DNA of 64,000 nt, from the IMG/VR virus record IMGVR_UViG_3300035670_000191, positions 1,540 to 65,539 of that record; one strand, given 5' to 3'. Below, piece after piece: positions 10,062 to 28,062 of the stretch; position 1 is the stretch's first letter, and every line of letters begins with the position of its first letter. The DNA comes from a virus. Lineage: Duplodnaviria; Caudoviricetes. The notes under the pieces were generated by a model. The model did not search any database and had not been told where the DNA came from. It worked only from the letters and a program-made list of their open reading frames with translations. A program made the position numbers and the translations under genes.

Positions 10062-10730
10062 ATGGGTAGATTTTCAGTTTCAATCGAAGAAATGTCAGAT
10101 AAGGTCGAGATTCTTGACCCGGGTATTTATGCTGCCGAAATAACTGACATCGGCGGTCAAACCCGCGACGGGGACTTCTACATCAAGATTGACGAAGAAC
10201 GGAAATGGAACAGTAAGCTCAAAGCTATGGCATCCACTGGCCAAAAGACTATCCAAGGTGGTTTCACGTACAAGGTTGTGCTGCTTTCTGAAAAAGCCAA
10301 GGCCCAACTTCTTGTTGACGAACCCCAGTTGGTTTGCTTCTTGAACTTACGCTTTGACGAGAAGTATCGCCTTTCTACAAAGCAAAACATTCCGCTGACC
10401 CAGATCATCCGTCTGTTCGACCTAGACTTAACCTCCCTGCTTGAAGAAGCCGAGTCGTCGATTGACTGGGATGAAGTCCACGTCCCGGAAGAATATGAAG
10501 ACTTGCCGGATGCTCAAGCAATGTGGGAATCTGTGGTGTTTCACCGTGAGTTCCTGAATGTTTTGGGCGTGGCTTTGAAGGGCCAAAGGGTACGGGTTAA
10601 AGTAACCCACCGCCCGAACCGCCAGAATAAGTCTGTCATGGAACACGGCATCGACACTGGCGCACCAAGCCAGCCATTCTGCGGACTATTGGCTTATGCA
10701 GACGGCTGTGAGGATGACTTGCAGGAATAA
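10062..10730 (+). CDS. putative ssDNA-binding protein (DUF669-like)
   Basis: LDPGIYAAEI N-terminus, LKGQRVRVKV, acidic tail; position after the Sak4-like gene. Confidence 0.55.
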   Translation: MGRFSVSIEEMSDKVEILDPGIYAAEITDIGGQTRDGDFYIKIDEERKWNSKLKAMASTGQKTIQGGFTYKVVLLSEKAKAQLLVDEPQLVCFLNLRFDEKYRLSTKQNIPLTQIIRLFDLDLTSLLEEAESSIDWDEVHVPEEYEDLPDAQAMWESVVFHREFLNVLGVALKGQRVRVKVTHRPNRQNKSVMEHGIDTGAPSQPFCGLLAYADGCEDDLQE

Positions 10731-17633: not shown

Positions 17634-18458
17634 ATGAGTGATATTGAACCCGTTGAAGTGGCCGAAGCCACTGGCCGCCCTGTTGTGATGCAAGATGGTA
17701 GTACTGTTGTGTTTGGCGACCGCGCTAACCGTAAGTCTGTTATGGACTTGGACTCGAACAGTATTACGTTCTATATTGCAACGGGTGAGATTATCCGGCA
17801 AGAGTTTGTTGGACTTCAGGCGTTCGATGGACTGGAGAATCTGAGCGTGTTTTTCCGCAGAATTATCCTGGATGGGATTCGTGCGAAGGTTAATAGTCAG
17901 GTTGGGGCTACTCCGCTTGTGAGCGAGGAGTTCATGGAAATTGAAGTAGATGGTCAAAAGGTGAAGAAGCCCACCGGTGGTTTTGTTCACAGTCTGGCAA
18001 AGTCTATTCAGGATTCGTTGGCTGAGATTGCAAGCGGTGTTTATACGAATCGGGCCATGTTGGCTTCTTCGTCACGGCGTAGTTATAGGTCGCTGACTAC
18101 TGAGCAAGAGGCTTATGCTCTGACTGCAATCCACGTGGCTTCTATTTTTGCTGCAAAGCAAGGGACTGTGGAATGGACTGTGGATGGCCTGCATATTCCG
18201 AACGTAACTGCTGATGTTCGTGCCGCATGGGCCGCTTTGCCGAAGGAACAACAAGCTGTTGTCAAAAAGAGCGTTCCGTTCAAGAAGTTTAAGGCTGACC
18301 TGGTGTTTGCGCGTAAGGGTTTTACTGTTGAGTCTCAGGCTGTTGCAACCCCTGTGGGCCTTGTAGCAGTTCCGGACGCCGGACAGTGGGATGTTACTGC
18401 TATGGAACCGGAACCGGAAGCTGACACCGAGGCTGATGCCCTGCCGTTGGCCGCGTAA
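17634..18458 (+). CDS. hypothetical protein, probably highly expressed
   Basis: 274 aa, GAGGTG RBS, own promoter, downstream hairpin. Confidence 0.8.
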   Translation: MSDIEPVEVAEATGRPVVMQDGSTVVFGDRANRKSVMDLDSNSITFYIATGEIIRQEFVGLQAFDGLENLSVFFRRIILDGIRAKVNSQVGATPLVSEEFMEIEVDGQKVKKPTGGFVHSLAKSIQDSLAEIASGVYTNRAMLASSSRRSYRSLTTEQEAYALTAIHVASIFAAKQGTVEWTVDGLHIPNVTADVRAAWAALPKEQQAVVKKSVPFKKFKADLVFARKGFTVESQAVATPVGLVAVPDAGQWDVTAMEPEPEADTEADALPLAA

Positions 18459-18597
18459 GGTTAAGGGCACGGATGCCCTAGCCCCTAGCAAGGTACCTCT
18501 ACAAAGTTGACTTGTAGTCGGGATTTTGGAAACTGGCTTTTTCCCCGGAGCAACTTTTTTCAAATTGACTTGTAGGGTGGGTTATTATAAGGGGCGA

Positions 18598-18690
18598 AGA
18601 GGACACCGGCAAAAGGGGAAATACTAAGCCCCAGTGCCGGTGTCTTGTAGGTGTGGTGAAAAGGCGGGGCTTTAGGGTCTCGCCTTTTTT
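18598..18690 (+). ncRNA. candidate small RNA (stem-loop plus terminator)
   Basis: AGGACACCGGCA/TGCCGGTGTCTT stem with inner GGGG/CCCC; terminator 18659-18690; TTGACT at 18565. Confidence 0.4.
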
Positions 18691-18723
18691 GTGTTTAGCC
18701 TTTGCTTTGGTGTTGGAGTTTGT

Positions 18724-19527
18724 ATGCGTTATCGGTTGTATCAAGGGGATTGCGCCAAAGTTATGGCTTCATTCCCGCCGGGGTCTGTTGACCTTGTTGT
18801 TACAAGTCCACCGTATGATGGGCTTAGGGCATACGAAGGGTATACGTTTGACTTCCCAAAGATTGCTGAAGAACTTTGGAGAGTTGTTACTGAAGGTGGT
18901 ATTGTTGTTTGGGTTATTGGAGATGCTACTGTTAATGGAAGTGAGACAGGAACGTCTTTTAGACAAGTGTTAAAGTTTATGGATGTTGGATTCCGGCTGC
19001 ATGATACTATGATATGGAATAAGGGGAGTTTTACGGCTGTTGGTGCTTTGAAAACACGCTATGGGCCTGTATTCGAGTATATGTTTGTACTGGCAAAGGG
19101 TAAGCCTAGAGTGTTTAATCCGATAAAGGATAGGAGGAATAAGCAAGCGGGAAAAACATCCAACGGACGGCTTCGACTCCCCGACGGTTCCATGAGGCTA
19201 AGAAGTAACCCAGACTATGTTATACCGGAATATGGGCAAAGATTTAACGTCTGGGATATACATCCGGTGAAGACCAACCGAGCCGACGACCATCCTGCCC
19301 CTTTTCCAGAAGCACTTGCAAATGACCATATTGTTTCTTGGTCGAATCCGGGAGACATAATACTTGACCCGTTCGCCGGAAGCGGAACAACATTGTTAGC
19401 GGCTTTGACAAACGGGCGGCAAGCCATTGGAATTGAAACTTCGGAAAAGTATTGTGGTATGATACGTGAGAGGCTGGCAAGACGTGGATTTCTTCCGGGC
19501 GGAAGTATTGTTGCTGTTGAAGGCTAA
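18724..19527 (+). CDS. beta-class DNA methyltransferase (probably N4-cytosine)
   Basis: VTSPPY, HPAPFP, LDPFAGSGTT. Confidence 0.92.
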   Translation: MRYRLYQGDCAKVMASFPPGSVDLVVTSPPYDGLRAYEGYTFDFPKIAEELWRVVTEGGIVVWVIGDATVNGSETGTSFRQVLKFMDVGFRLHDTMIWNKGSFTAVGALKTRYGPVFEYMFVLAKGKPRVFNPIKDRRNKQAGKTSNGRLRLPDGSMRLRSNPDYVIPEYGQRFNVWDIHPVKTNRADDHPAPFPEALANDHIVSWSNPGDIILDPFAGSGTTLLAALTNGRQAIGIETSEKYCGMIRERLARRGFLPGGSIVAVEG

Positions 19528-19573
19528 GGCAAGCCGCAAATTTATGAAAAGTGTTCTTCTGTGAGGTGATGTT

Positions 19574-19654
19574 ATGGTGTTGTTAGATGTTTTTTGGATA
19601 TGTGTTACTGCTTTGGTCACGTTCTCACTGCTCTCGGCGGTTGTAGATGATTAG
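19574..19654 (+). CDS. 26-aa hydrophobic peptide
   Basis: GAGGTG RBS; MVLLDVFWICVTALVTFSLLSAVVDD; below the ORF-track cutoff. Confidence 0.5.
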   Translation: MVLLDVFWICVTALVTFSLLSAVVDD

Positions 19655-20408
19655 GGAGTCAAGCCACGGTAGACTTATACTTGGTAACTGTCTTGACGTG
19701 CTACCCACACTCCGTGATACGTCCGCCGGGATGGTTTTGTGTGATATGCCGTATGGGACGACAGCTTGTAAGTGGGATGTTGTTATTCCTCTTGCGCCAA
19801 TGTGGCGGGAAGTTATGAGGGTTGTGAAGCCAGGCGGTGCAATCGTGCTGACAGCCACACAACCTTTTTCAAGTGTACTTGTTATGAGTCAGCCGGACTT
19901 GTTTAAGTATGCTTGGTATTGGTGTAAGAATTTTAAGACCGGACATTTGAATGCTAAGAAGCAGCCAATGAGGAGCGTGGAAGATATACTTGTGTTTTGC
20001 GATGGGCAGACAGTGTATAATCCGCAAGGGGTTGTGCCGCATGGTAAGGTGAAAGACCGGGGAGTCGGGGCCACGACAAACCGGCCTTGTGGTAGTGTGT
20101 CTTTGCAAACCCACACCGGCTATCCACACCAGCAGTTGTTCTTTGACCGTGACTTACCCTCTGTTCATCCTACGCAAAAGCCTGTTGCACTCTTTGAGTA
20201 TCTTGTAAGGACTTACACCAATCCCGGTGATACAGTAGTTGACTTTTGTTCTGGGAGCGGAACTACTGCTTTGGCGTGCATTGCTTCTGGGCGGAACTAT
20301 GTTTGTGTTGAGAAAGACCCAGGGTTTTATGAAGTAGGGGTTACGCGGGTGGGTGAGGCTGAAGCCATGCAAGCCCTGTGCCAACCGAGCGAATCTCACG
20401 CGCCGTGA
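19647..20408 (+). CDS. beta-class DNA methyltransferase (N6A/N4C)
   Basis: CDMPYG, HPTQKP, VDFCSGSGTT. Confidence 0.92.
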   Translation: MIRESSHGRLILGNCLDVLPTLRDTSAGMVLCDMPYGTTACKWDVVIPLAPMWREVMRVVKPGGAIVLTATQPFSSVLVMSQPDLFKYAWYWCKNFKTGHLNAKKQPMRSVEDILVFCDGQTVYNPQGVVPHGKVKDRGVGATTNRPCGSVSLQTHTGYPHQQLFFDRDLPSVHPTQKPVALFEYLVRTYTNPGDTVVDFCSGSGTTALACIASGRNYVCVEKDPGFYEVGVTRVGEAEAMQALCQPSESHAP

Positions 20409-20412
20409 AAAT

Positions 20413-20607
20413 TTGACAAGTGTGGTTGGGTGTGGTAGGAACGGGTTGACCGCTCTGCTTACCACACTTTTGGCTGTTTGTCAAGAGCCTGTGCCGCCAT
20501 GCACACTTCCGTCGGAATGTCAAGCCGGAAGCTGGCTGTTGACAAAGGGCTTTTGGTGTGGTAGGGCAGGCCAAGCACTTGACACACACCCCAACATGTG
20601 GTAAACC
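20413..20607. promoter_or_regulatory. cluster of sigma70-like sites in both orientations
   Basis: TTGACA-N12-TGTGG-TA at 20413(+), 20484(-), 20539(+), 20579(+); weaker copy at 20523(-). Confidence 0.75.
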
Positions 20608-20632
20608 CCCCCCCCCCACCTGGCCCCCCCCC

Positions 20633-20732
20633 ACAAAATCCATGCCACCCCTCCCTCCCTCCCCCCGGCACGGCCCTTGCACCGTCAAAATCCATGCCAC
20701 CACGCCCGACCCGACCTGGCACGAACCTTGCA
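20633..20732. promoter_or_regulatory. cluster of four sigma54-like sites
   Basis: CGGCACGGCCCTTGCA 20666, TGGCACGAACCTTGCA 20717; TGGCATGGATTTTG twice on the minus strand. Confidence 0.7.
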
Positions 20733-20827
20733 AGTTACCCCGCCACCGATCCGCCACCATAGTAAAGTTCTCGATCAACCTCGTTCTAACTCCCAAAAAA
20801 GTCCAAAAAAGCACCAACTACCCCGGG

Positions 20828-20866
20828 GGCCGCCCACAGCCCCTATCACAAAGCGTGATAACCAGC
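20828..20866 (+). repeat. 39-bp direct repeat, copy 1
   Basis: 31/39 identical to 23467-23505; contains TATCAC-N5-GTGATA. Confidence 0.7.
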
Positions 20867-21049
20867 CCTGAAATTCCCCAGAAAATTCCGGGATAAAAAC
20901 CCTGTAAACCGCATGGTTTTTCCGTGTGGGCAACAAGCGACGCCCAGTGTTGCGCCCACGCAACAATTACAACGGACTGTGATAGGGGGTTGTTGCGCGG
21001 ACGCAACAGCCAAGCCTTCGGCTCCGGTCTCCGACTTTGCATGGCCTGC

Positions 21050-22330
21050 TGCCCAAAGGTTTGCCCAAGTCCGGGTCTGCCTCGCCAAAGGTTTGCCAAA
21101 GTTTTGGTGGAAGGTTTGTCCGAGTCTGCGGCTCCCGGCTCCGGGTGTCAAGTTTCCGACAGGCCCGACAAGCAGGGCCATGGGACTGGTCAGTCCAGAT
21201 CGCCCCACCCAAACATAAACTTGGACTAACTTCCAGGGCTTGGGAGACAAGAACTTAAGGCAAGCCCTGCAAGCCCTGCAAGCCCCAAGTTGAACTTAGT
21301 TGTTGCGGGCCAAGGGCCATGCCCATTCAACAAGTTGAAGTTGGGCCTGTGGCCAAGGGCCATACCCAGTGTCAATTTTCCGACACTTGGACAAGTGGGG
21401 TTTGCCCGGCTGCCCGGCTGCCCGTGTTGCGTGTTTGCAACAAGTGGGCCGGGGCCGAGGGCTTTCCAAGTGGAACTTATTGTTGCCACAGATGTACCTG
21501 CCCACAAGTGGACTTCCAGTTTCACTTGTGGGGCTTGCCAAGTTGGCAACAAATTGACCCCAAGTTGAACTTCCATGAACTTCCATGAACTTCCAGTTGT
21601 TTGCCACAAGTGAAAAGTTAGCCAAGCCTGTTTGCAACAAGGGTGGGGGGGACTTCAATAAGTTGAACCCGGTTGAACCCGGTTGAACCCGGTTGAACGG
21701 CCAAGCCTGTTGGCTTCAATAAGTTTGGTTCCCGCCGGGCAAGCCCTGCCTGCAACAAGTTGAGTCAATGTTGGCTGTGCCATGCAACAAGTTTGGCTCC
21801 CGCCAGTGGAACAATGTTCATGCAACAAGTTAACCCGGTTAACCCTGTTAAACAATGTTTGCCAGTGGAATCCACTGGATTCAACAAGTTGAACACTGTT
21901 CATGGCTTCTTTCAGAAGTTGGGGGGGGGGGGCAATGGGCAGACTTTCAGAAGTGAAACTTATGGGCCAAGGGCAAGGGCAAGCCTGGCCAATCCCGACC
22001 AAGCCTGCAACAAGTTGACCTTGTTGACCCCGGTTGACCCCGGTTGACCCGCCCCGTTCAGCCCTTGTTCAGGTTCATGCGACAGGTTGACAGGGTGACC
22101 TTGTGGCCATGCCCCGGTTGAACCCCGGTTGCCGACAAGCCCACAAGTGTCAGTTTCCCGACAGATGGGCGGGGCAAGCCCGCTGGCTGAACAGACTGAC
22201 TGTTGACAGGCCAAGCCAGGGGCAAGCCCAAAGGGATGGCAGGTGTCAAGTGGGCACAGGGCCAAGCACCGAGGCCAAGCCCTCACGCCCTCACGCTCAC
22301 ACAAGTCGCAGCCCACAGCCCACAGCCCGG
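21050..22330. repeat. non-coding field of short tandem repeats and palindromes
   Basis: CAAGCCCTG, AACTTCCATG, GTTGAACCCG, GTTGACCCCG tandems; TTCAACAAGTTGAA palindromes. Confidence 0.8.
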
Positions 22331-22452
22331 ATTGGCCGAAGGCCTGGCCACGGCCACTTTTTTGCGTGCGGGTGCATGTGTGGATTTATAGTTACCCTAG
22401 TTGTTCTAGTTCGGAGGCCGCCGACCCGCATTCTGCCTAGGGCCGAAGGCCA

Positions 22453-22518
22453 ATAGGTGGGATAAAACAACCAGATAGGGGGGAAAATCCAACCACATAG
22501 GTGGGAAAAAACAACCAC
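22453..22518 (+). repeat. three tandem 22-bp iterons (putative plasmid-type origin)
   Basis: ATAGGTGGGATAAAACAACCAG / ATAGGGGGGAAAATCCAACCAC / ATAGGTGGGAAAAAACAACCAC directly upstream of rep. Confidence 0.85.
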
Positions 22519-22585
22519 AAAAGGGTGAATGGCCCTTGCCCTGCTCACCCCTATCGGCTAGACTGGGGCTTTTTGAGGCAGAGCC

Positions 22586-23422
22586 GTGATCGTGAAAAAC
22601 GTCCCAAGCACCGACAGCAGAATGGTGTGCCCCTTGTTGGCGGGCAACACCCATGCAAGTTTGAGCAACATTTTGTTGAACGGAAGTTTCCCTTTTTCAA
22701 ACACTGAGGCTCTTGCCATTCTTTTGTCACTTGGAGGGGTTAATTCAACTCCGACTGACAACCCTGAAACAGATGCTTACAGGAAGTCAAGAGTTTATGC
22801 GTTCAGCACAAAAGACTATGCGGCTTTGAAAAACTTGGACGCAAGACAGACTTACAGGACTTTTCTGGCAGCAGCAGAGTCCATTTTCAAGAAACACTTT
22901 GTTGTTTTTCCGTCAAAGACAAATAGAGACAAAGTCTTGTGCCGTTGGGTTAGCGAAGTTCATGCTTATGCAGATGCAGACAGGATTGGGTTTGTTTACA
23001 GTCCGACGGTTTACGACTTTATCTTTAACTTGACAGGGGATTTTACGCGGCTAAACACACTTGTGTCTTTGACCATTGAGGGAAAACACCCAAGAAGATT
23101 GTTTATGCTGCTGGAACAACAGCGGTTCAGGGGTCTTGTGGGGCAGGCAGGGTGGGGAATTGAGGAACTTTATGAGTGCTTTGGGGCAACGGAGGCGGCC
23201 AGGGAAGCGAAGGTGTTTTTCAAGGACATTTTCAATCCGTCAGTTGCGGCTTTGAAGGAAGTTGGGTATCTGGATGAGTGCGAAGTTCGGAAGGTTAAGG
23301 CTGGTCGGAACATTTCGGGAGTTGAGTTGGACTTTGTTTTGGCGTCGCAGGAGAAGTTTGCCGAAGTTTACAGGGCAGACTTGGAGCATCTTGCGAAACT
23401 GAAGGCAAGGTGGGGAAGCTAA
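22586..23422 (+). CDS. plasmid-type replication initiator (Rep_3/RepB family)
   Basis: SN.LL....FS..E, FIFNL..DFT, RRLFMLL, IEEL..FG, FFKDIF.PSV, K.GR.I; adjacent iterons. Confidence 0.85.
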   Translation: MIVKNVPSTDSRMVCPLLAGNTHASLSNILLNGSFPFSNTEALAILLSLGGVNSTPTDNPETDAYRKSRVYAFSTKDYAALKNLDARQTYRTFLAAAESIFKKHFVVFPSKTNRDKVLCRWVSEVHAYADADRIGFVYSPTVYDFIFNLTGDFTRLNTLVSLTIEGKHPRRLFMLLEQQRFRGLVGQAGWGIEELYECFGATEAAREAKVFFKDIFNPSVAALKEVGYLDECEVRKVKAGRNISGVELDFVLASQEKFAEVYRADLEHLAKLKARWGS

Positions 23423-23466
23423 CAGCCCCACTCCCGCCTCAAAAAAGCGTCAAAAAACCGACACTA

Positions 23467-23505
23467 GGCCACCCACAGCCAAAATCACATTCCGTGATAC
23501 CCAGC
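23467..23505 (+). repeat. 39-bp direct repeat, copy 2
   Basis: matches 20828-20866; contains AATCAC-N5-GTGATA. Confidence 0.7.
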
Positions 23506-24058
23506 AAAGGGCCGGCAAAGGGACTGTTCAACCTTAGACAAAGCCAGAGGGCGGACAAACTTGTCCAAAGTTCTTGGCGAACAGACAGAGCTATACTCAG
23601 GTTGTGACAGAGCATCATGGCTAAAGTTCCATGAAATCACCGATAGACGACAGTCTACCACAGATTGCCGCCGGGGGGACACGTTTAGGCAACAAACTGG
23701 GAGGGGAGTGTCAAAAAAGTGACACCCAGTGAGGGCGGGGCCGGGCCGGGGCCAAGGACGGACGGGGCAAACCCGTGAAGTGGGAAGCGTGACAGACGGA
23801 CGGGGCAAGCCGGGGGGACAAGCCCCAAAGTCCAACTTAGTCAAAGATTGTGGCGTGGCGAGGCCCAACTTAGTCCAAGTTCGTGCCGAAAGAATGGTAG
23901 ACTTAGTTTGGGGCGAGCCGGGGCAGGCCAGGGTGTACAGGTTTTGTATGGGGGGGGGCTAGCCCTGGGCGGTTGTGTGGATTTTGGCCAAGTGTCAAGA
24001 TTTTGACGGTGGGGGGGGGGGGTGTCGGTGTCCGGGTGTGGGCGGTGGGGTTAGGGTG

Positions 24059-24087
24059 TTGACGGGGAGGAGGGGGTGTGGTAGAGT
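24059..24087 (+). promoter_or_regulatory. sigma70 promoter of the Lcl gene cluster
   Basis: TTGACG-N12-TGTGG-TAGAGT (17-bp spacer, -7 T present). Confidence 0.7.
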
Positions 24088-24153
24088 GTGTGGGAAGGGG
24101 GGGGTGGCCCTCGCCCCAAACAGCAATTCCAAGCACCACCTGGCGAGAGTATC

Positions 24154-24489
24154 ATGACAGACAAATTATACAGCGAGTTTTCTGAAGTCCTAGAAGAAGT
24201 TTTCCTGGAGAGGGAGAAAGTCCCCTTTGAAAAGTCTTCCGTCAATCCTTCTCATGTATGTGTAGCTGAAAGATTTTACAAGGAGGGGTTGAAAGCAGCC
24301 GCCATACAGCTAGGGTATAGCCGGTCTGACTTCTATTTTGCGTGGAAGGTAGCACAAGTAGCAATGTACGAACATAGACAAATGTACAGTTTGCTACTAG
24401 ACAGTGACCGGGCAGACACTATAGCCTACTTTTATGACATTCCGTCATGGAACATGGTTAAAGCAATGATGGATATTTTTACAGAGTAA
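24154..24489 (+). CDS. hypothetical protein
   Basis: ATG 24154 with GAGAG RBS, downstream of the promoter. Confidence 0.65.
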   Translation: MTDKLYSEFSEVLEEVFLEREKVPFEKSSVNPSHVCVAERFYKEGLKAAAIQLGYSRSDFYFAWKVAQVAMYEHRQMYSLLLDSDRADTIAYFYDIPSWNMVKAMMDIFTE

Positions 24490-24500
24490 CAGAAAGTGGA

Positions 24501-24884
24501 GTGAGAGCGGTGCAAAGCATGAGATACGAAACAGTGACAGAAACGGAAGTATTAGACCGAAAGACAGGTTTAATATGGATGAAAGACCCTAAGATTGACC
24601 TAAATTTTGAACAAGCTAAACAATATGCAGAGAGAATTTCTACTATAAATGGAAAATTTTGGAGAATCCCTACAATAGAGGAATTAGTTAGCTTAGTGGA
24701 CTATACATTATGCACACCTAACACACCGGCATCAACATTCCCTAATATGTTACAAAATATCTATTGGTCGTTTTCAAACTATTGGGGTGAGGTTGATAGA
24801 GTCTGGGTCGTAAATTTCTACGATGGTAAGATAATGGATTATGGCCTTGGTGATAATGTTGCATTAGTTCTCCTAGTTCGGTAA
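24501..24884 (+). CDS. Lcl C-terminal / DUF1566 domain protein
   Basis: D.KTGLIW, WRIPTIEEL, YWS, WVVNF.DG, LVR. Confidence 0.88.
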   Translation: MRAVQSMRYETVTETEVLDRKTGLIWMKDPKIDLNFEQAKQYAERISTINGKFWRIPTIEELVSLVDYTLCTPNTPASTFPNMLQNIYWSFSNYWGEVDRVWVVNFYDGKIMDYGLGDNVALVLLVR

Positions 24885-24890
24885 TAAATT

Positions 24891-25292
24891 ATGAATGTCG
24901 AGGTGCAGAGCATGAGATACGTTGAAGTTTCAGAAATACACGACACGCAAACAGGGCTAATTTGGCAAAAAGTATGTCAAGGCTCATTCACTATAGAAGA
25001 AGCCATAGCCTATGTTAAGTCTTTTAACAAAAGCACAGGCATGGAATGGAGAATTCCCACAATCGAGGAACTGAATAGGTTGGTTGACAGAAGCCAATTT
25101 GACCCGGCAACTAAATTCCCAGACAGCCCTAGTGGACTTTTCTGGTCATCTACAAAGTATCTTGGGAGGCCAGAAAGGGTATTCACCAATGAAAACAGCC
25201 ATAGTTATTGGTATATTAACTTCACTAATGGGGAGGTAAGTTTCAACTTAGGGGATTCTGAGTATTACCTAAGGTTAGTCCGTGATAAGTAA
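24891..25292 (+). CDS. Lcl C-terminal / DUF1566 domain protein
   Basis: DTQTGLIWQ, WRIPTIEEL, FWSST, INF.NG, LRLVR. Confidence 0.88.
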   Translation: MNVEVQSMRYVEVSEIHDTQTGLIWQKVCQGSFTIEEAIAYVKSFNKSTGMEWRIPTIEELNRLVDRSQFDPATKFPDSPSGLFWSSTKYLGRPERVFTNENSHSYWYINFTNGEVSFNLGDSEYYLRLVRDK

Positions 25293-25322
25293 TGCGGTTA
25301 AACAGAAACATAAGGCAGAAGC

Positions 25323-25721
25323 ATGAGTAAGTTAAAACAAATTGGTAGGGTAAAAGGTAAGGATTCCGCTAGCGATTCCATTGTATACTTGGAAAAACAC
25401 GCTAAGAGCAATGGGAAACTGTATTACGGTTTAGTTGTTGCAGAGACACCTGACGGAGTGATTAAGCCATATTTAATGGACGACATTATCGCGTCATTTG
25501 ACCTAGATGCACCGCTTATTGGAATGGAGGTTACTGTAGATAACCCACTTGAGTTTATTCAAAGTTGGCGAGACGTTTATAACTTAGAAAGCGTTATAAA
25601 GATGTACCGGAGAAACAACCCAAGCTCCTCTACGTTGCCGTTGTTACAAGCCGACCTGCTAGAGGCTTTAGATAAAATATGGTCTGAATTGACTAATTTG
25701 AAATACCGGAGAAGAATATGA
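25323..25721 (+). CDS. hypothetical protein
   Basis: 132 aa ORF overlapping the next start. Confidence 0.65.
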   Translation: MSKLKQIGRVKGKDSASDSIVYLEKHAKSNGKLYYGLVVAETPDGVIKPYLMDDIIASFDLDAPLIGMEVTVDNPLEFIQSWRDVYNLESVIKMYRRNNPSSSTLPLLQADLLEALDKIWSELTNLKYRRRI

Positions 25722-26086
25722 GATACGTTGAAAAAGCAGAATCAGAAATCCTTGATACCAAAACCAATTTGGTTTGGCAAAGGTCATACGAGACCATGAC
25801 ATTTGATGAGGCTCACGCTTATGCAAAGCGTGTTTCAGATGTTACAGGGCAACAATGGAGGGTGCCGACACTGGATGAATTGACGAGTCTGATTGACAGA
25901 TCAACAAGAAACCCCGCGTCGGCATTTCCTGGTATGCCTCCGGTATGGTTTTGGTCGTCGTCGCCGTACGTCGGCTATACCAGTTGCGTCTGGGGTGTCA
26001 ATTTCGGCGATGGCAGTGTCTACGGCAGCGGCAGCCGTGGCTACGGCTACGGCGCGGTTCGGTTGGTTCGTGATGCAATACCCTAA
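25718..26086 (+). CDS. Lcl/DUF1566 protein with a DGR-type variable region
   Basis: WRVPTLDEL, FWSSS, VRLVR; 3' codons almost all NNY. Confidence 0.88.
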   Translation: MRYVEKAESEILDTKTNLVWQRSYETMTFDEAHAYAKRVSDVTGQQWRVPTLDELTSLIDRSTRNPASAFPGMPPVWFWSSSPYVGYTSCVWGVNFGDGSVYGSGSRGYGYGAVRLVRDAIP

Positions 26087-26169
26087 AGCCCCACATACCC
26101 CGCAATAAGTATTCAAGCCCTGGGTGAGATACCCACGGGAATACCCACGGGAATACCTTTCTGACAAAG

Positions 26170-26215
26170 TTAAGGCCAGCCAATAATACCATGTAAGTAT
26201 TACTGCTGGCCTTAA
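26170..26215. terminator. inverted repeat between convergent operons
   Basis: TTAAGGCCAGC..GCTGGCCTTAA with inner TAATAC/GTATTA. Confidence 0.6.
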
Positions 26216-26222
26216 TCAATCC

Positions 26223-26633
26223 TCACAGGCCAAATTTAGCCTTCTCCGCCCTTCCCCAAGCCCGGATACCCTCCACATAGGCATTGTAGATATTAAACTC
26301 ATCCGAAGGCGCAGTCCGAATAAGTTTAATCTCATCATACAAAGCGTATCGTTCTGCAATCTTTTCCCTAACTCGTGCATTCACCAGAGCAACATGCGGG
26401 CTACTAGCCGAAAGTGCTTCCTTAAGTTCCGGAGTCAGCGTCACAGTTTCAATAGTAATCTGGCTTGGTTGTTCGGGCAATACAAGATTATCAGGTATAC
26501 TTACATACATATATTCGTCAAGTTTTCCAAGAAATGTGGGGAAAGGCCCGTCCATTTCAGTCGAAGGCGTGTATAGTAAGTTGTAGGTAGTATACTCATC
26601 CGATACCGGTATGTATTTAACTATAGAAGGCAT
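26223..26633 (-). CDS. hypothetical protein, possibly a fibre-associated chaperone
   Basis: 136 aa, GAGG RBS, directly after the Mtd-like gene. Confidence 0.75.
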   Translation of the reverse strand: MPSIVKYIPVSDEYTTYNLLYTPSTEMDGPFPTFLGKLDEYMYVSIPDNLVLPEQPSQITIETVTLTPELKEALSASSPHVALVNARVREKIAERYALYDEIKLIRTAPSDEFNIYNAYVEGIRAWGRAEKAKFGL

Positions 26634-26691
26634 TGGTTGTCCTCATTGTGTTAGATTGTGGTAGTTTTGGGCTATCGCTCCAACACTATTT

Positions 26692-28062
26692 TTACAGGTA
26701 AAGGCCGGAGCGGCCGCCCACAGTGTCGTTCGAGTACGACCCTACGTGGCCGAGATAAAACGCCCAAGCCCCGGCACCCGGCCCATGGCCCCAGTAGCCG
26801 CCGGAGATCGGGCACAGGCCGATCGGTTTGTAATCCCCTATCCCGTCTAATCCGAAATGATTAGACCCGGCCCCAGATGCCCCGTCGACCTGCGGTATGC
26901 CCATTCCGGTCAATCGCCAGTTTGGGGTGGTGCGGTCGCTGCTGGCAGCAAATACGCCGTTGGCGGCATTTCCAAACCGCAGGGACTGGTTTGTTCCGGT
27001 CAATGCTCCAGTATCCGTTCCGTATGTGTGGCTGTAAAATACGTCGCTGTTGTACGTAAATGCCGTGTCGGCAGTAATATCCCGACAGGCAACCGCTTCC
27101 TTTAGTAAATACAGCAGTGTGCCGTCTGACGTAATCCCCGGGGTTACTTCCCACATATTTCCGTTTAAGTCAGCTACCCCACAATTCTGACCGTTATGCG
27201 TAGTTTTGGCAAACGGCGTTCCACTGCCAGTTTTGCCGCAGTTGGGGTATCCGTCAGATGTATATTGCACGTTAGTATCGTCAATATCCAGCAGGGCGTT
27301 ATTATTGTTCCCCTTGGGAAAGTTACTGAAACCGCTCGCGTTATACCACGCACACGTTGTGTTACTCGTCACCGCCTGTGCGTGTGCCTGTGCTAGCAAT
27401 GCCAGTGCCGCATATTGATGCCTGAATACAGGGAAAAACTGGGCGCCGTAATACCCGCCCCGAGTTTTACTCGCAGCAAATGCTCCGTCGTATCGGTTCT
27501 GCGCGGAGGTCATCCCGGTCAGGTTGCCCCAGGGGTTATGATCTGCGTGACTTGACAATGGATTTCCATTTTTAATTGAACTAGCCCGGCCTGCATTATT
27601 GGCCCACTGGTATTTATCGACAAAAAATCCGGGTTTTGACACTCCGCCGTCAATAAACCCCCGGTGCAAAGCATATCCTGCCGCATTTGCATCTGTTTCC
27701 GAAGCAAACGTAAAATCGCCAGCAATATCTATGGCATTAGCCCCATATACCGAGTATCTTGGACTACCAGAATTGCCAATTCTATAATAGAATCGGGGTA
27801 TCCAAGCCATGATACTCCCGTCTGTATACATATAATTTCCCCAGTTATCGTGTACTGGGTCATACGTCCCTACCATCGTCGCAAAGTCTGTCGGAACATC
27901 CAGTGGATATGGTGCAATACCAAACCCATAACTCCCGGCAATACCTATGTCACTTGCACCGTGCATATACTGGGGGTGTATCGTGTCCCCCCGTTGTAAC
28001 TCGCTTATTTGCCAAGTCCCGTCTGGTTTTTGAAAAAACTTTAATGGTACTATGTTAGTCAT
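26692..28062 (-). CDS. Mtd-like C-type-lectin (FGE-type) receptor-binding protein with a DGR-type variable region
   Basis: GFFVDKY, THNG..CGVADLNGNMWE, C-terminal ISGGYW..AGAWA..VGGRS. Confidence 0.85.
   Translation of the reverse strand: MTNIVPLKFFQKPDGTWQISELQRGDTIHPQYMHGASDIGIAGSYGFGIAPYPLDVPTDFATMVGTYDPVHDNWGNYMYTDGSIMAWIPRFYYRIGNSGSPRYSVYGANAIDIAGDFTFASETDANAAGYALHRGFIDGGVSKPGFFVDKYQWANNAGRASSIKNGNPLSSHADHNPWGNLTGMTSAQNRYDGAFAASKTRGGYYGAQFFPVFRHQYAALALLAQAHAQAVTSNTTCAWYNASGFSNFPKGNNNNALLDIDDTNVQYTSDGYPNCGKTGSGTPFAKTTHNGQNCGVADLNGNMWEVTPGITSDGTLLYLLKEAVACRDITADTAFTYNSDVFYSHTYGTDTGALTGTNQSLRFGNAANGVFAASSDRTTPNWRLTGMGIPQVDGASGAGSNHFGLDGIGDYKPIGLCPISGGYWGHGPGAGAWAFYLGHVGSYSNDTVGGRSGLYL

Follow-up and report, generated by a model that had tools for sequence, protein, structure and literature searches.

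A Rep_3-type initiator gene with phased iterons as a candidate replication origin in a PolA-encoding siphovirus

The subject of this report is a window of 64,000 nucleotides of DNA from an uncultured freshwater tailed phage, bases 1540–65539 of one 65,539-bp virus record (IMG/VR record IMGVR_UViG_3300035670_000191). It contains a gene, rep, whose product is assigned to the Rep_3 family of replication initiators by profile search and predicted structure, and which is preceded by three phased 22-bp direct repeats (iterons). Coordinates are those of the window unless the record is named. In our estimate there is about an even chance that the repeats and the gene make up a functional theta-type origin of the phage itself, with Rep as the phage's own origin-binding initiator. 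Rep is the only recognizable initiator in the record and therefore most simply starts the phage's own replication. The phage may thus have a single replication system, started by a plasmid-type initiator, and not two, a proposal that we hold to be just as probable as its negation. Binding of Rep to the iterons and autonomous replication by this origin are predicted from the sequence.

A Rep_3 gene preceded by phased iterons

22453–22474, 22475–22496, and 22497–22518, + strand: iterons, three 22-bp direct repeats (alignment, Tandem Repeats Finder [TRF], mismatch scan, shuffles)
22586–23422, + strand: rep, encoding a predicted Rep_3-family initiator of 278 amino acids (aa) with two winged-helix domains, WH1 and WH2 (Pfam, PHROG, AlphaFold2 model, Foldseek)

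A first-pass annotation, made from the sequence without database searches, had named a Rep_3-like gene at this location, and profile searches bear it out. In a hidden Markov model search, Rep matches PF01051 (Rep3_N) at E = 5.2e-13 and 50 bits against a cut-off of 22.4, with residues 27–176 aligned to profile positions 5–140 of 141, and a six-frame scan of the DNA gives Rep3_N 51.3 bits. Among the PHROGs it hits 4402, “replication initiation protein,” with 6.6e-15. From 60 relatives, AlphaFold2 gave a model with a mean predicted local distance difference test score (pLDDT) of 91.1 and a predicted template-modeling score (pTM) of 0.87. By Foldseek, this model superposes on monomeric RepE54–iteron complexes with template-modeling (TM) scores by target of 0.83–0.88 over 231–241 columns, and on the Pi–iteron complex with 0.74. 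Searched against the PDB, a profile of the Rep family recovers RepE at 1e-46, Pi at 3e-37, and the WH1 domain of pPS10 RepA (1hkq) at 1.2e-35. WH2 (Rep3_C) is recognized by structure and falls under its cut-off by sequence. Because the model superposes on whole RepE54 monomers, both winged-helix domains are present, and Rep is a genuine, if divergent, initiator of the Rep_3 family.

The gene begins with GTG at 22586, preceded by GAGG at 22575–22578 with a gap of 7 nt. It directly follows the replication genes of the phage, on their strand, and its G+C content is 47.3%, compared with 46.4% for the rest of the phage.

The annotation had further placed three exactly phased 22-bp repeats about 70 bp upstream of the gene, and this description holds. 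The copies start at 22453, 22475, and 22497, a spacing of 22 nt with no indels, and 67 bp separate the end of the array, at 22518, from the GTG. The copies are 82–85% identical to the reference copy, and TRF reports a period of 22, 3.0 copies, 82% matches, and a score of 99. Relative to their consensus, the three copies carry 2, 3, and 0 mismatches, so that the phasing is exact and the copies are not. Successive iterons agree at 36 of 44 positions, which ranks first among three-copy tandems of period 15–30 across the 64 kb of the window. Of 200 dinucleotide-preserving shuffles, none matched that score (observed 0.818; shuffle maximum 0.706, mean 0.617). In each unit, an A-rich spacer separates the conserved blocks ATAGGKGGG and AACCA. 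Phased direct repeats of about 17–22 bp, or about two helical turns, adjoining the rep gene are a feature of the Rep_3 family, and the array shares it. In two other sequencing runs (X3 and X5, below), A replaces T at 22463, and iteron 1 is thereby nearer the consensus.

The array stands alone. Allowing up to 7 mismatches, a scan of both strands of the whole 65,539-bp record found no further iteron, no second cluster for copy control, and no copy within rep; extra iterons as a copy-control locus were therefore rejected. An exact-match scan of the metagenome_contigs collection with iteron 3 gave no match.

Layout of the candidate origin

22334–22344, + strand: first copy of GGCCGAAGGCC, which occurs only twice in 65,539 bp
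22377–22387, + strand: first copy of TGTGTGGATTT, which occurs only twice in the genome
22389–22411, + strand: candidate DNA-unwinding element, A+T-rich, with three TAGTT words at a 9-nt phase (A+T windows, word scan)
22441–22451, + strand: second copy of GGCCGAAGGCC, abutting iteron 1
22521–22552, unstranded: candidate operator, with inverted arms AAGGGTGA (22521–22528) and TCACCCCT (22545–22552) from the iteron 5′ block, centered on the proposed −35
22536–22564, + strand: proposed rep promoter, TTGCCC-17 nt-TAGACT, matching the consensus at 8 of 12 positions (read from the sequence)
23974–23984, + strand: second copy of TGTGTGGATTT, 552 bp past the rep stop codon

The two copies of GGCCGAAGGCC bracket an A+T-rich segment upstream of the iterons that contains a T6 run, TGTGTGGATTT at 22377, and the three TAGTT words. 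Two of these words form TAGTT-N4-TAGTT at 22389 and 22398, and the stretch that holds them lies 41 bp upstream of the iterons. The 30-nt window at 22384 is 67% A+T and ties for the richest in the non-coding DNA of the island that surrounds rep (described below). Within TGTGTGGATTT, 7 of 9 positions agree with the DnaA-box consensus in reverse complement; this consensus is taken from general background and may not be that of the host.

On the other side of the array, AAGGGTGA reads as a degenerate fourth phased iteron unit and forms inverted arms with an inverted half-iteron. The latter, CACCCCTAT at 22546–22554, matches at 8 of 9 positions and falls in the spacer of the proposed rep promoter. 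Its level of match was reached by 49 of 5000 shuffles of the leader and by none of 2564 other 67-nt windows of the island. A consensus promoter scan of 20300–24300 listed only two sites, none of them at 22536–22564 or 20413–20607.

As read from the sequence, the order of A+T-rich stretch, iterons, inverted partial iterons at the promoter, and rep fits the layout of an origin. The candidate origin is compact and well delimited, at about 22.33–23.43 kb, and might serve as a replicon for a freshwater host.

The phage and its gene content

The record is linear, with an estimated completeness of 78%. It describes a siphovirus with a lambda-type terminase gpA, portal, S49 protease, gpD, tape measure, and gpM/L/K/J-like tail genes. 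A plasmid-type initiator of the Rep_3 family thus occurs together with lambda-like head, tail, and terminase genes, a combination that is one mark of phage-plasmids. Directly before the island, a + strand block of replication and nucleotide genes encodes a RecD/Pif1-like helicase, ThyX, a PD-(D/E)XK nuclease, a Sak4-like ATPase, PolA, MazG, an ATP-dependent ligase, and three DNA methylases; a UvrD-like helicase gene lies on the opposite strand. PolA, ligase, helicases, and ThyX, which the first-pass annotation had listed for this genome, were all found. The open reading frame (ORF) at 10062–10730 gave a DUF669-like lead only (ESM Atlas), and the ORF at 17634–18458 returned nothing usable from the same source.

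Pfam and PHROGs scans took in chosen ORFs of at least 60 aa, together with the ORFs of the first 1539 bp of the record, outside the window. These scans gave no integrase, partition protein, repressor, protelomerase, DnaB-type helicase, helicase loader, or primase, and no immunity or toxin–antitoxin family. Six-frame scans at E ≤0.1 gave no Phage_integrase, AAA_31, DnaB_C, ParB_N, ResT/TelK, HTH_3, Prim-Pol, or Toprim_2. The impression that no integrase is visible was therefore right for tyrosine integrases in six frames. For partition, neither AAA_31 (ParA) nor ParB_N is present in the 78%-complete record. For lysogeny control, HTH_3 and ResT/TelK are absent from the six-frame scans, other repressor families being covered by the general Pfam and PHROGs scans only.

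Several further observations concern the genome at large. The window contains no Rfam family at gathering score and no tRNA. An exact-match scan of the viral_contigs collection with the right end of the record gave no match and hence no extension of the record. The cyanobacterial HIP1 signature, a motif known from general background, was considered and rejected, since GCGATCGC is absent. GATC is strongly depleted in the 64 kb, with 24 sites (0.38/kb, compared with 3.4/kb for GANTC and 4.3/kb for CCGG), and the phage has three DNA methylase genes. Record positions 1–150, outside the window, hold about nine tandem copies of the 16-nt CGCACGCACGCGCACC, with no terminal repeat at the other end; the tandem may mark either an assembly break or a real genome end. 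GC skew was tried as an origin marker and rejected, since its turns at 26 and 46 kb coincide with gene strand switches. At about 15–16 kb, GC skew goes from slightly negative to about +0.22 with the coding strand unchanged, and AT skew changes sign in the same stretch; this switch may be a mosaic boundary or may be related to replication.

One replication system or two

In the mechanism that we propose for a phage-owned origin, Rep monomers would bind all three iterons from one face of the helix, since 22 bp makes two turns, and the bound protein would melt the A+T-rich TAGTT-repeat stretch upstream. Rep would also bring in the DnaB helicase and primase of the host, because the phage record encodes neither. 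Elongation, processing, and, later on, recombination-dependent replication would then fall to the PolA, ligase, Sak4-like and DUF669-like proteins, exonuclease, and superfamily 1 (SF1) helicases of the phage. Rep dimers would probably repress the rep promoter through the inverted half-iterons centered on the −35. The polymerase, ligase, and SF1 helicases are functions of elongation and processing, not of initiation. Because no initiator, DnaB-type helicase, or primase was detected for it in the scans above, the PolA set does not amount to a second system of initiation. Should Rep be the initiator of lytic replication, then a copy-controlled plasmid-type initiator can be wired to a phage-encoded elongation set.

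In favor of the proposal stand the Rep_3 membership of the protein in sequence and fold, the non-random and unique iteron array, the origin-like order of elements, the lack of any other initiator-like gene, the native G+C content and strand of rep, the conservation of Rep in another study, and the Rep_3-type genes of a fragment with a related terminase (G002) and of a Skunavirus, both described below. Several points weigh against this proposal. The array comprises only three iterons, and near it there is no canonical DnaA box (TTATCCACA or TGTGGATAA), the nearest thing being TGTGGATTT, a match at 7 of 9 positions. The rep promoter is weak at 8 of 12 and falls under the threshold of the consensus scan, so that it goes unlisted there. 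Cumulative GC skew turns at about 15, 26, and 46 kb, with no turn at 22.4 kb. The sequence score for Rep3_C is 16.5 bits, under the cut-off of 21.1. Many early ORFs of the replication region have no assignable function, and with a completeness of 78%, a phage primase–helicase or maintenance genes may sit in the missing part, about a fifth of the genome. Finally, the published roles of phage Rep and RepA proteins, in the passages cited, are in the replication of plasmid prophages and not in lytic growth (PMC3091744, PMC7157519).

It is possible, although in our view unlikely, that the phage is a phage-plasmid or carrier-state phage, in which Rep and the iterons keep a low-copy episome between lytic cycles while lytic replication starts elsewhere and uses the PolA module. 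Iteron-bearing Rep_3 replicons are, as a class, copy-controlled plasmid systems, no integrase appears in six frames, and about a fifth of the genome may be missing. There are also precedents, as far as the passages cited describe them: phage KS14, with a RepB-like initiator, is kept as a plasmid prophage (PMC3091744), and RepA of cluster A mycobacteriophages is needed for stable extrachromosomal lysogeny (PMC7157519). However, both precedents have a partition gene beside rep, whereas the six-frame scans of this record gave no ParA (AAA_31), ParB_N, protelomerase, or HTH_3, and the scans of chosen ORFs gave no partition, immunity, or toxin–antitoxin family. Nor does the record hold a second iteron cluster for copy control or any visible alternative start of lytic replication, and a pattern scan of genome_contigs found no relative of Rep or of the large terminase subunit (TerL).

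The first-pass annotation had interpreted the locus as, among other options, a phage-plasmid or carrier-state phage with two replication modes and had suggested that partition or protelomerase genes be sought elsewhere. None was found in the record by ORF and six-frame scans, at 78% completeness. The part of its interpretation that stands is a Rep_3 initiator with cognate iterons in a PolA phage; for two replication modes, a phage-plasmid, or a carrier state, nothing positive emerged. If Rep does drive a maintenance replicon, then this would be a phage-plasmid without known partition genes.

The island around rep and its variants

20409–24087, unstranded: G+C-rich (about 54–58%), repeat-dense island, non-coding except for rep (G+C windows, TRF, Pfam)

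The candidate origin is part of a 3.7-kb island, with the last DNA methylase gene on one side and the next + strand gene on the other. In 1-kb windows, the G+C fraction of the island is 0.533–0.553, compared with 0.39–0.51 elsewhere. The deviation belongs to the non-coding flanks (56.4% and 58.0%, against 46.4% for the remainder of the window) and not to rep. Other ORFs of the island have no Pfam match. The island is rich in tandem triplets of 7–10 nt, in a GCAACAAGTT-type word, and in long C or G runs. Its left part, 20409–22330, is about 2 kb of non-coding DNA with tandems of GTTGAACCCG (3.7 copies), GTTGACCCCG (2.8), TGAACTTCCA (3), GCAAGCCCT (2.9), and CAGCCCA (2.9), the recurrent GCAACAAGTT-type word, and C or G runs of at least 9. 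Directly past the island, at 24501–26086, are three paralogous small genes with Lcl_C (PF07603), at E values of 1e-21 to 1e-25.

Assembled contigs from four runs and four studies were compared with the window over 18000–27000; all of the matching sequences were metagenome contigs, and no RNA data set was listed among the runs. Run X2 belongs to the same study as the probable source and to another sample. Its 4920-nt contig spans 18000–20617 with 0 differences, across the junction of methylase gene and island, and a 2036-nt contig covers 21922–23957. Run X3 comes from another study, of freshwater. It provides a 3530-nt contig with the iterons and rep and a 29,985-nt contig that runs from 23975 into the right-hand + strand genes, so that the flanking phage genes are the same. 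From runs X5 and X9 come shorter stretches of the rep region, at 90–99% likeness. The order of the pieces is identical across contigs, and the breaks fall at homopolymer or tandem tracts. The Rep of run X3 (P0110) differs at 1 of 278 residues, although 15 letters differ over 22286–23552. Because contigs of several runs and studies carry the rep region in the same order, the rep module is a stable part of the phage population in several freshwater and subsurface data sets.

Other parts of the region vary. Relative to the window, run X3 has 20 nt fewer of a tandem at 21662 and 10 nt fewer at 22019. It lacks the first N6_N4 methylase gene (18699–19530, 830 nt skipped), and downstream of rep, 1481 different letters replace 197 nt at 23552–23750. 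This methylase loss and this replacement mark the island, together with its edges, as a hot spot for changes in gene content.

The island figures in a more elaborate form of the phage-plasmid idea that we consider improbable. Here the phage would be a partition-less phage-plasmid or carrier siphovirus of freshwater bacteria with a minimal Rep_3 episome, the 3.7-kb island would be a composite cis-acting hub that replaces protein-coded maintenance genes, and the PolA module would serve the lytic burst. The features cited for it are the many phased arrays of 9–10 nt, the homopolymer runs, and promoter-like clusters. The corresponding assignment of contents to the island, namely an origin, centromere-like or host-factor sites, and switch promoters, we rate as no more credible than the hub itself.

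In a different account, rep is a minimal replicon, captured or selfish, that derives from a small Rep_3 plasmid or cassette and entered a non-coding hot spot of the phage by recombination, with no role in phage replication or with a role only in competing with related replicons. We doubt this account. In its favor, the protein nearest to Rep, P0002 (48% identity), is encoded on a contig of 1.7 kb, and its source annotates it as a plasmid replication initiation protein. TGTGTGGATTT occurs just twice, 1597 bp apart, and its two copies bracket the A+T-rich stretch, the iterons, and rep; the island is structurally variable, as the replacement and the missing methylase gene in run X3 attest; and a phage with a related terminase has a Rep_3 protein only 19% identical, which points to exchange of initiators. 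However, the island is so rich in repeats that one pair of 11-mers weighs little, and the phage has no other initiator. Recent capture, which the first-pass annotation had offered as an option, is disfavored because rep has the G+C content of the phage (47.3% against 46.4%), only the non-coding flanks deviating, and because the gene is intact and nearly unchanged in variants of other studies.

That an assembler joined a plasmid fragment to phage DNA, the outcome that the annotation had named as refuting its interpretation, is highly improbable: the deviant G+C content of the island and the long homopolymer runs that break short-read contigs would accord with it, but contigs from another sample and another study (runs X2 and X3) bridge both island junctions in the same order and with the same Rep, and the Rep cluster is also found on a 25,518-nt contig.

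Relatives of Rep

With these alternatives weighed, a phage-owned origin remains the reading that we favor, and its initiator is an isolated one. An exhaustive HMMER search of 1.84 billion representative proteins gave 108 matches at E ≤1e-3, and only two at E ≤1e-30, namely Rep itself and P0002. After P0002, the next relative is 31% identical and the others about 17–35%. By tblastn, Rep matches 35 plasmid records, 29 of them from Acinetobacter (RepM/RepB), all at 23–28% identity. Among 50,697 phage records, tblastn with Rep found no match at E 1e-5 or better, and blastn with the island found none either. A word-indexed protein search with Rep returned nothing beyond the query. Although near-identical records may be absent from the collections searched, viral_contigs gave no match with Rep, with the alignment of Rep and P0002, or with PolA, and metagenome_contigs gave no match with the alignment. 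A pattern scan of genome_contigs (genomes of 185,579 species) with the same alignment and for TerL found no relatives of either.

Rep thus adds a very divergent Rep_3 lineage, with one 48% and one 31% relative in 1.84 billion representatives. What is new is the very isolated lineage together with a PolA phage that has no visible helicase–primase, partition, or lysogeny genes. The design of the origin is that of the textbooks, such replicons in phages are already in print, and the gain is incremental.

Comparison with known systems

Eleven viral contigs carry terminases 51–65% identical to that of the phage; 10 of these records were searched, all of them fragments with a completeness of 13–50%. 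A Rep_3 gene is present in one of the 10, G002 (28.5 kb, 34% G+C). The G002 protein reaches 91.6 bits for Rep3_N and 53 for Rep3_C and is only 19% identical to Rep. A perfect pair of 21-bp repeats stands about 200 bp upstream of its gene, and a TTGACG-17-TATAAT site follows the pair directly. Just upstream of these repeats and the Rep_3 gene, at L015:10738–11190, G002 has a T5orf172/MUG113 (GIY-YIG-type) gene. PolA was found in none of 5 terminase-related fragments, which share only structural genes or are too short. Used as a tblastn query, the G002 Rep_3 matches 13 of the 50,697 phage records, including Burkholderia phage KS14 and relatives, a Microcystis phage, and a Skunavirus with a RepB-family initiator in the annotation of its record. 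Skunaviruses are virulent. Rep_3 initiators, as these sequence matches indicate, recur in tailed phages, where they are uncommon and are exchanged between lineages, the last point because a phage with a related terminase has a Rep_3 protein so different from Rep.

KS14, found through the G002 protein, resembles the present phage in having a Rep_3-type initiator in a non-integrating tailed phage. The cited passages describe a RepB-like gp37, a partitioning gene near rep, a serine recombinase, and a prophage that is recovered by plasmid preparations, all in a 32-kb P2-like myovirus (PMC3091744). In contrast, neither a partitioning gene nor such a recombinase was found in the scans of the present record.

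Cluster A mycobacteriophages with RepA encode a family A polymerase. In their parABS members Miko, Rachaly, and Jeeves, RepA is needed and sufficient for extrachromosomal prophage replication, and stable lysogeny of Miko needs RepA, a repA deletion of Miko keeping normal plaques and burst and losing stable carriage, according to the passages cited (PMC7157519). The same passages describe temperate phages with parABS beside repA, and in them no repeats are identified at the origins (PMC7157519). With a plasmid-type initiator inside a phage, they are the published form of the two-mode idea (PMC7157519). The likeness drawn here is one of description, and neither parABS nor signs of a temperate life were found in the present record.

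Phage lambda offers an analogy for the proposed mode of action. Next to an A+T-rich stretch, lambda O binds direct repeats that form a short array, and it relies on the DnaB helicase of the host; Rep may act at its iterons in a similar way. In lambda, however, the repeats lie inside the initiator gene, whereas here they lie upstream of rep, and no P-like loader was recognized. The present origin is not of the lambda O type, Pfam scans of the record ORFs having given no lambda O-type domain.

The plasmid initiators provide the closer match. Comparison structures were 1rep, 7sgc, and 2nra, Rep_3 initiators on iteron DNA, and 2z9o, a RepE dimer on its operator. Rep shares the fold of RepE (mini-F oriS) and Pi (R6K) over about 235 columns, and in all of these systems direct repeats adjoin the gene. 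The inverted partial repeat in the rep promoter region would parallel the arrangement of RepE, monomer on iteron and dimer on operator, that is given in the PDB titles. The differences are an identity of 14–17% in structural alignment and, on the present side, three repeats, no second control cluster, a tailed-phage genome, and no canonical DnaA box. For pPS10, the likeness begins with the protein, the WH1 domain of RepA being matched by the Rep family profile, and extends to the DNA. Plasmid pPS10 has four iterons of 22 bp, an operator at the repA promoter that consists of an inverted half-iteron, and, adjoining, an A+T-rich region and a dnaA box. Here, by difference, there are three iterons and a DnaA-like site matching at 7 of 9 positions, and the replicon is embedded in 65.5 kb of phage DNA instead of standing on its own. 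In its order of elements, the layout of pPS10, and likewise that of F, is the one read here.

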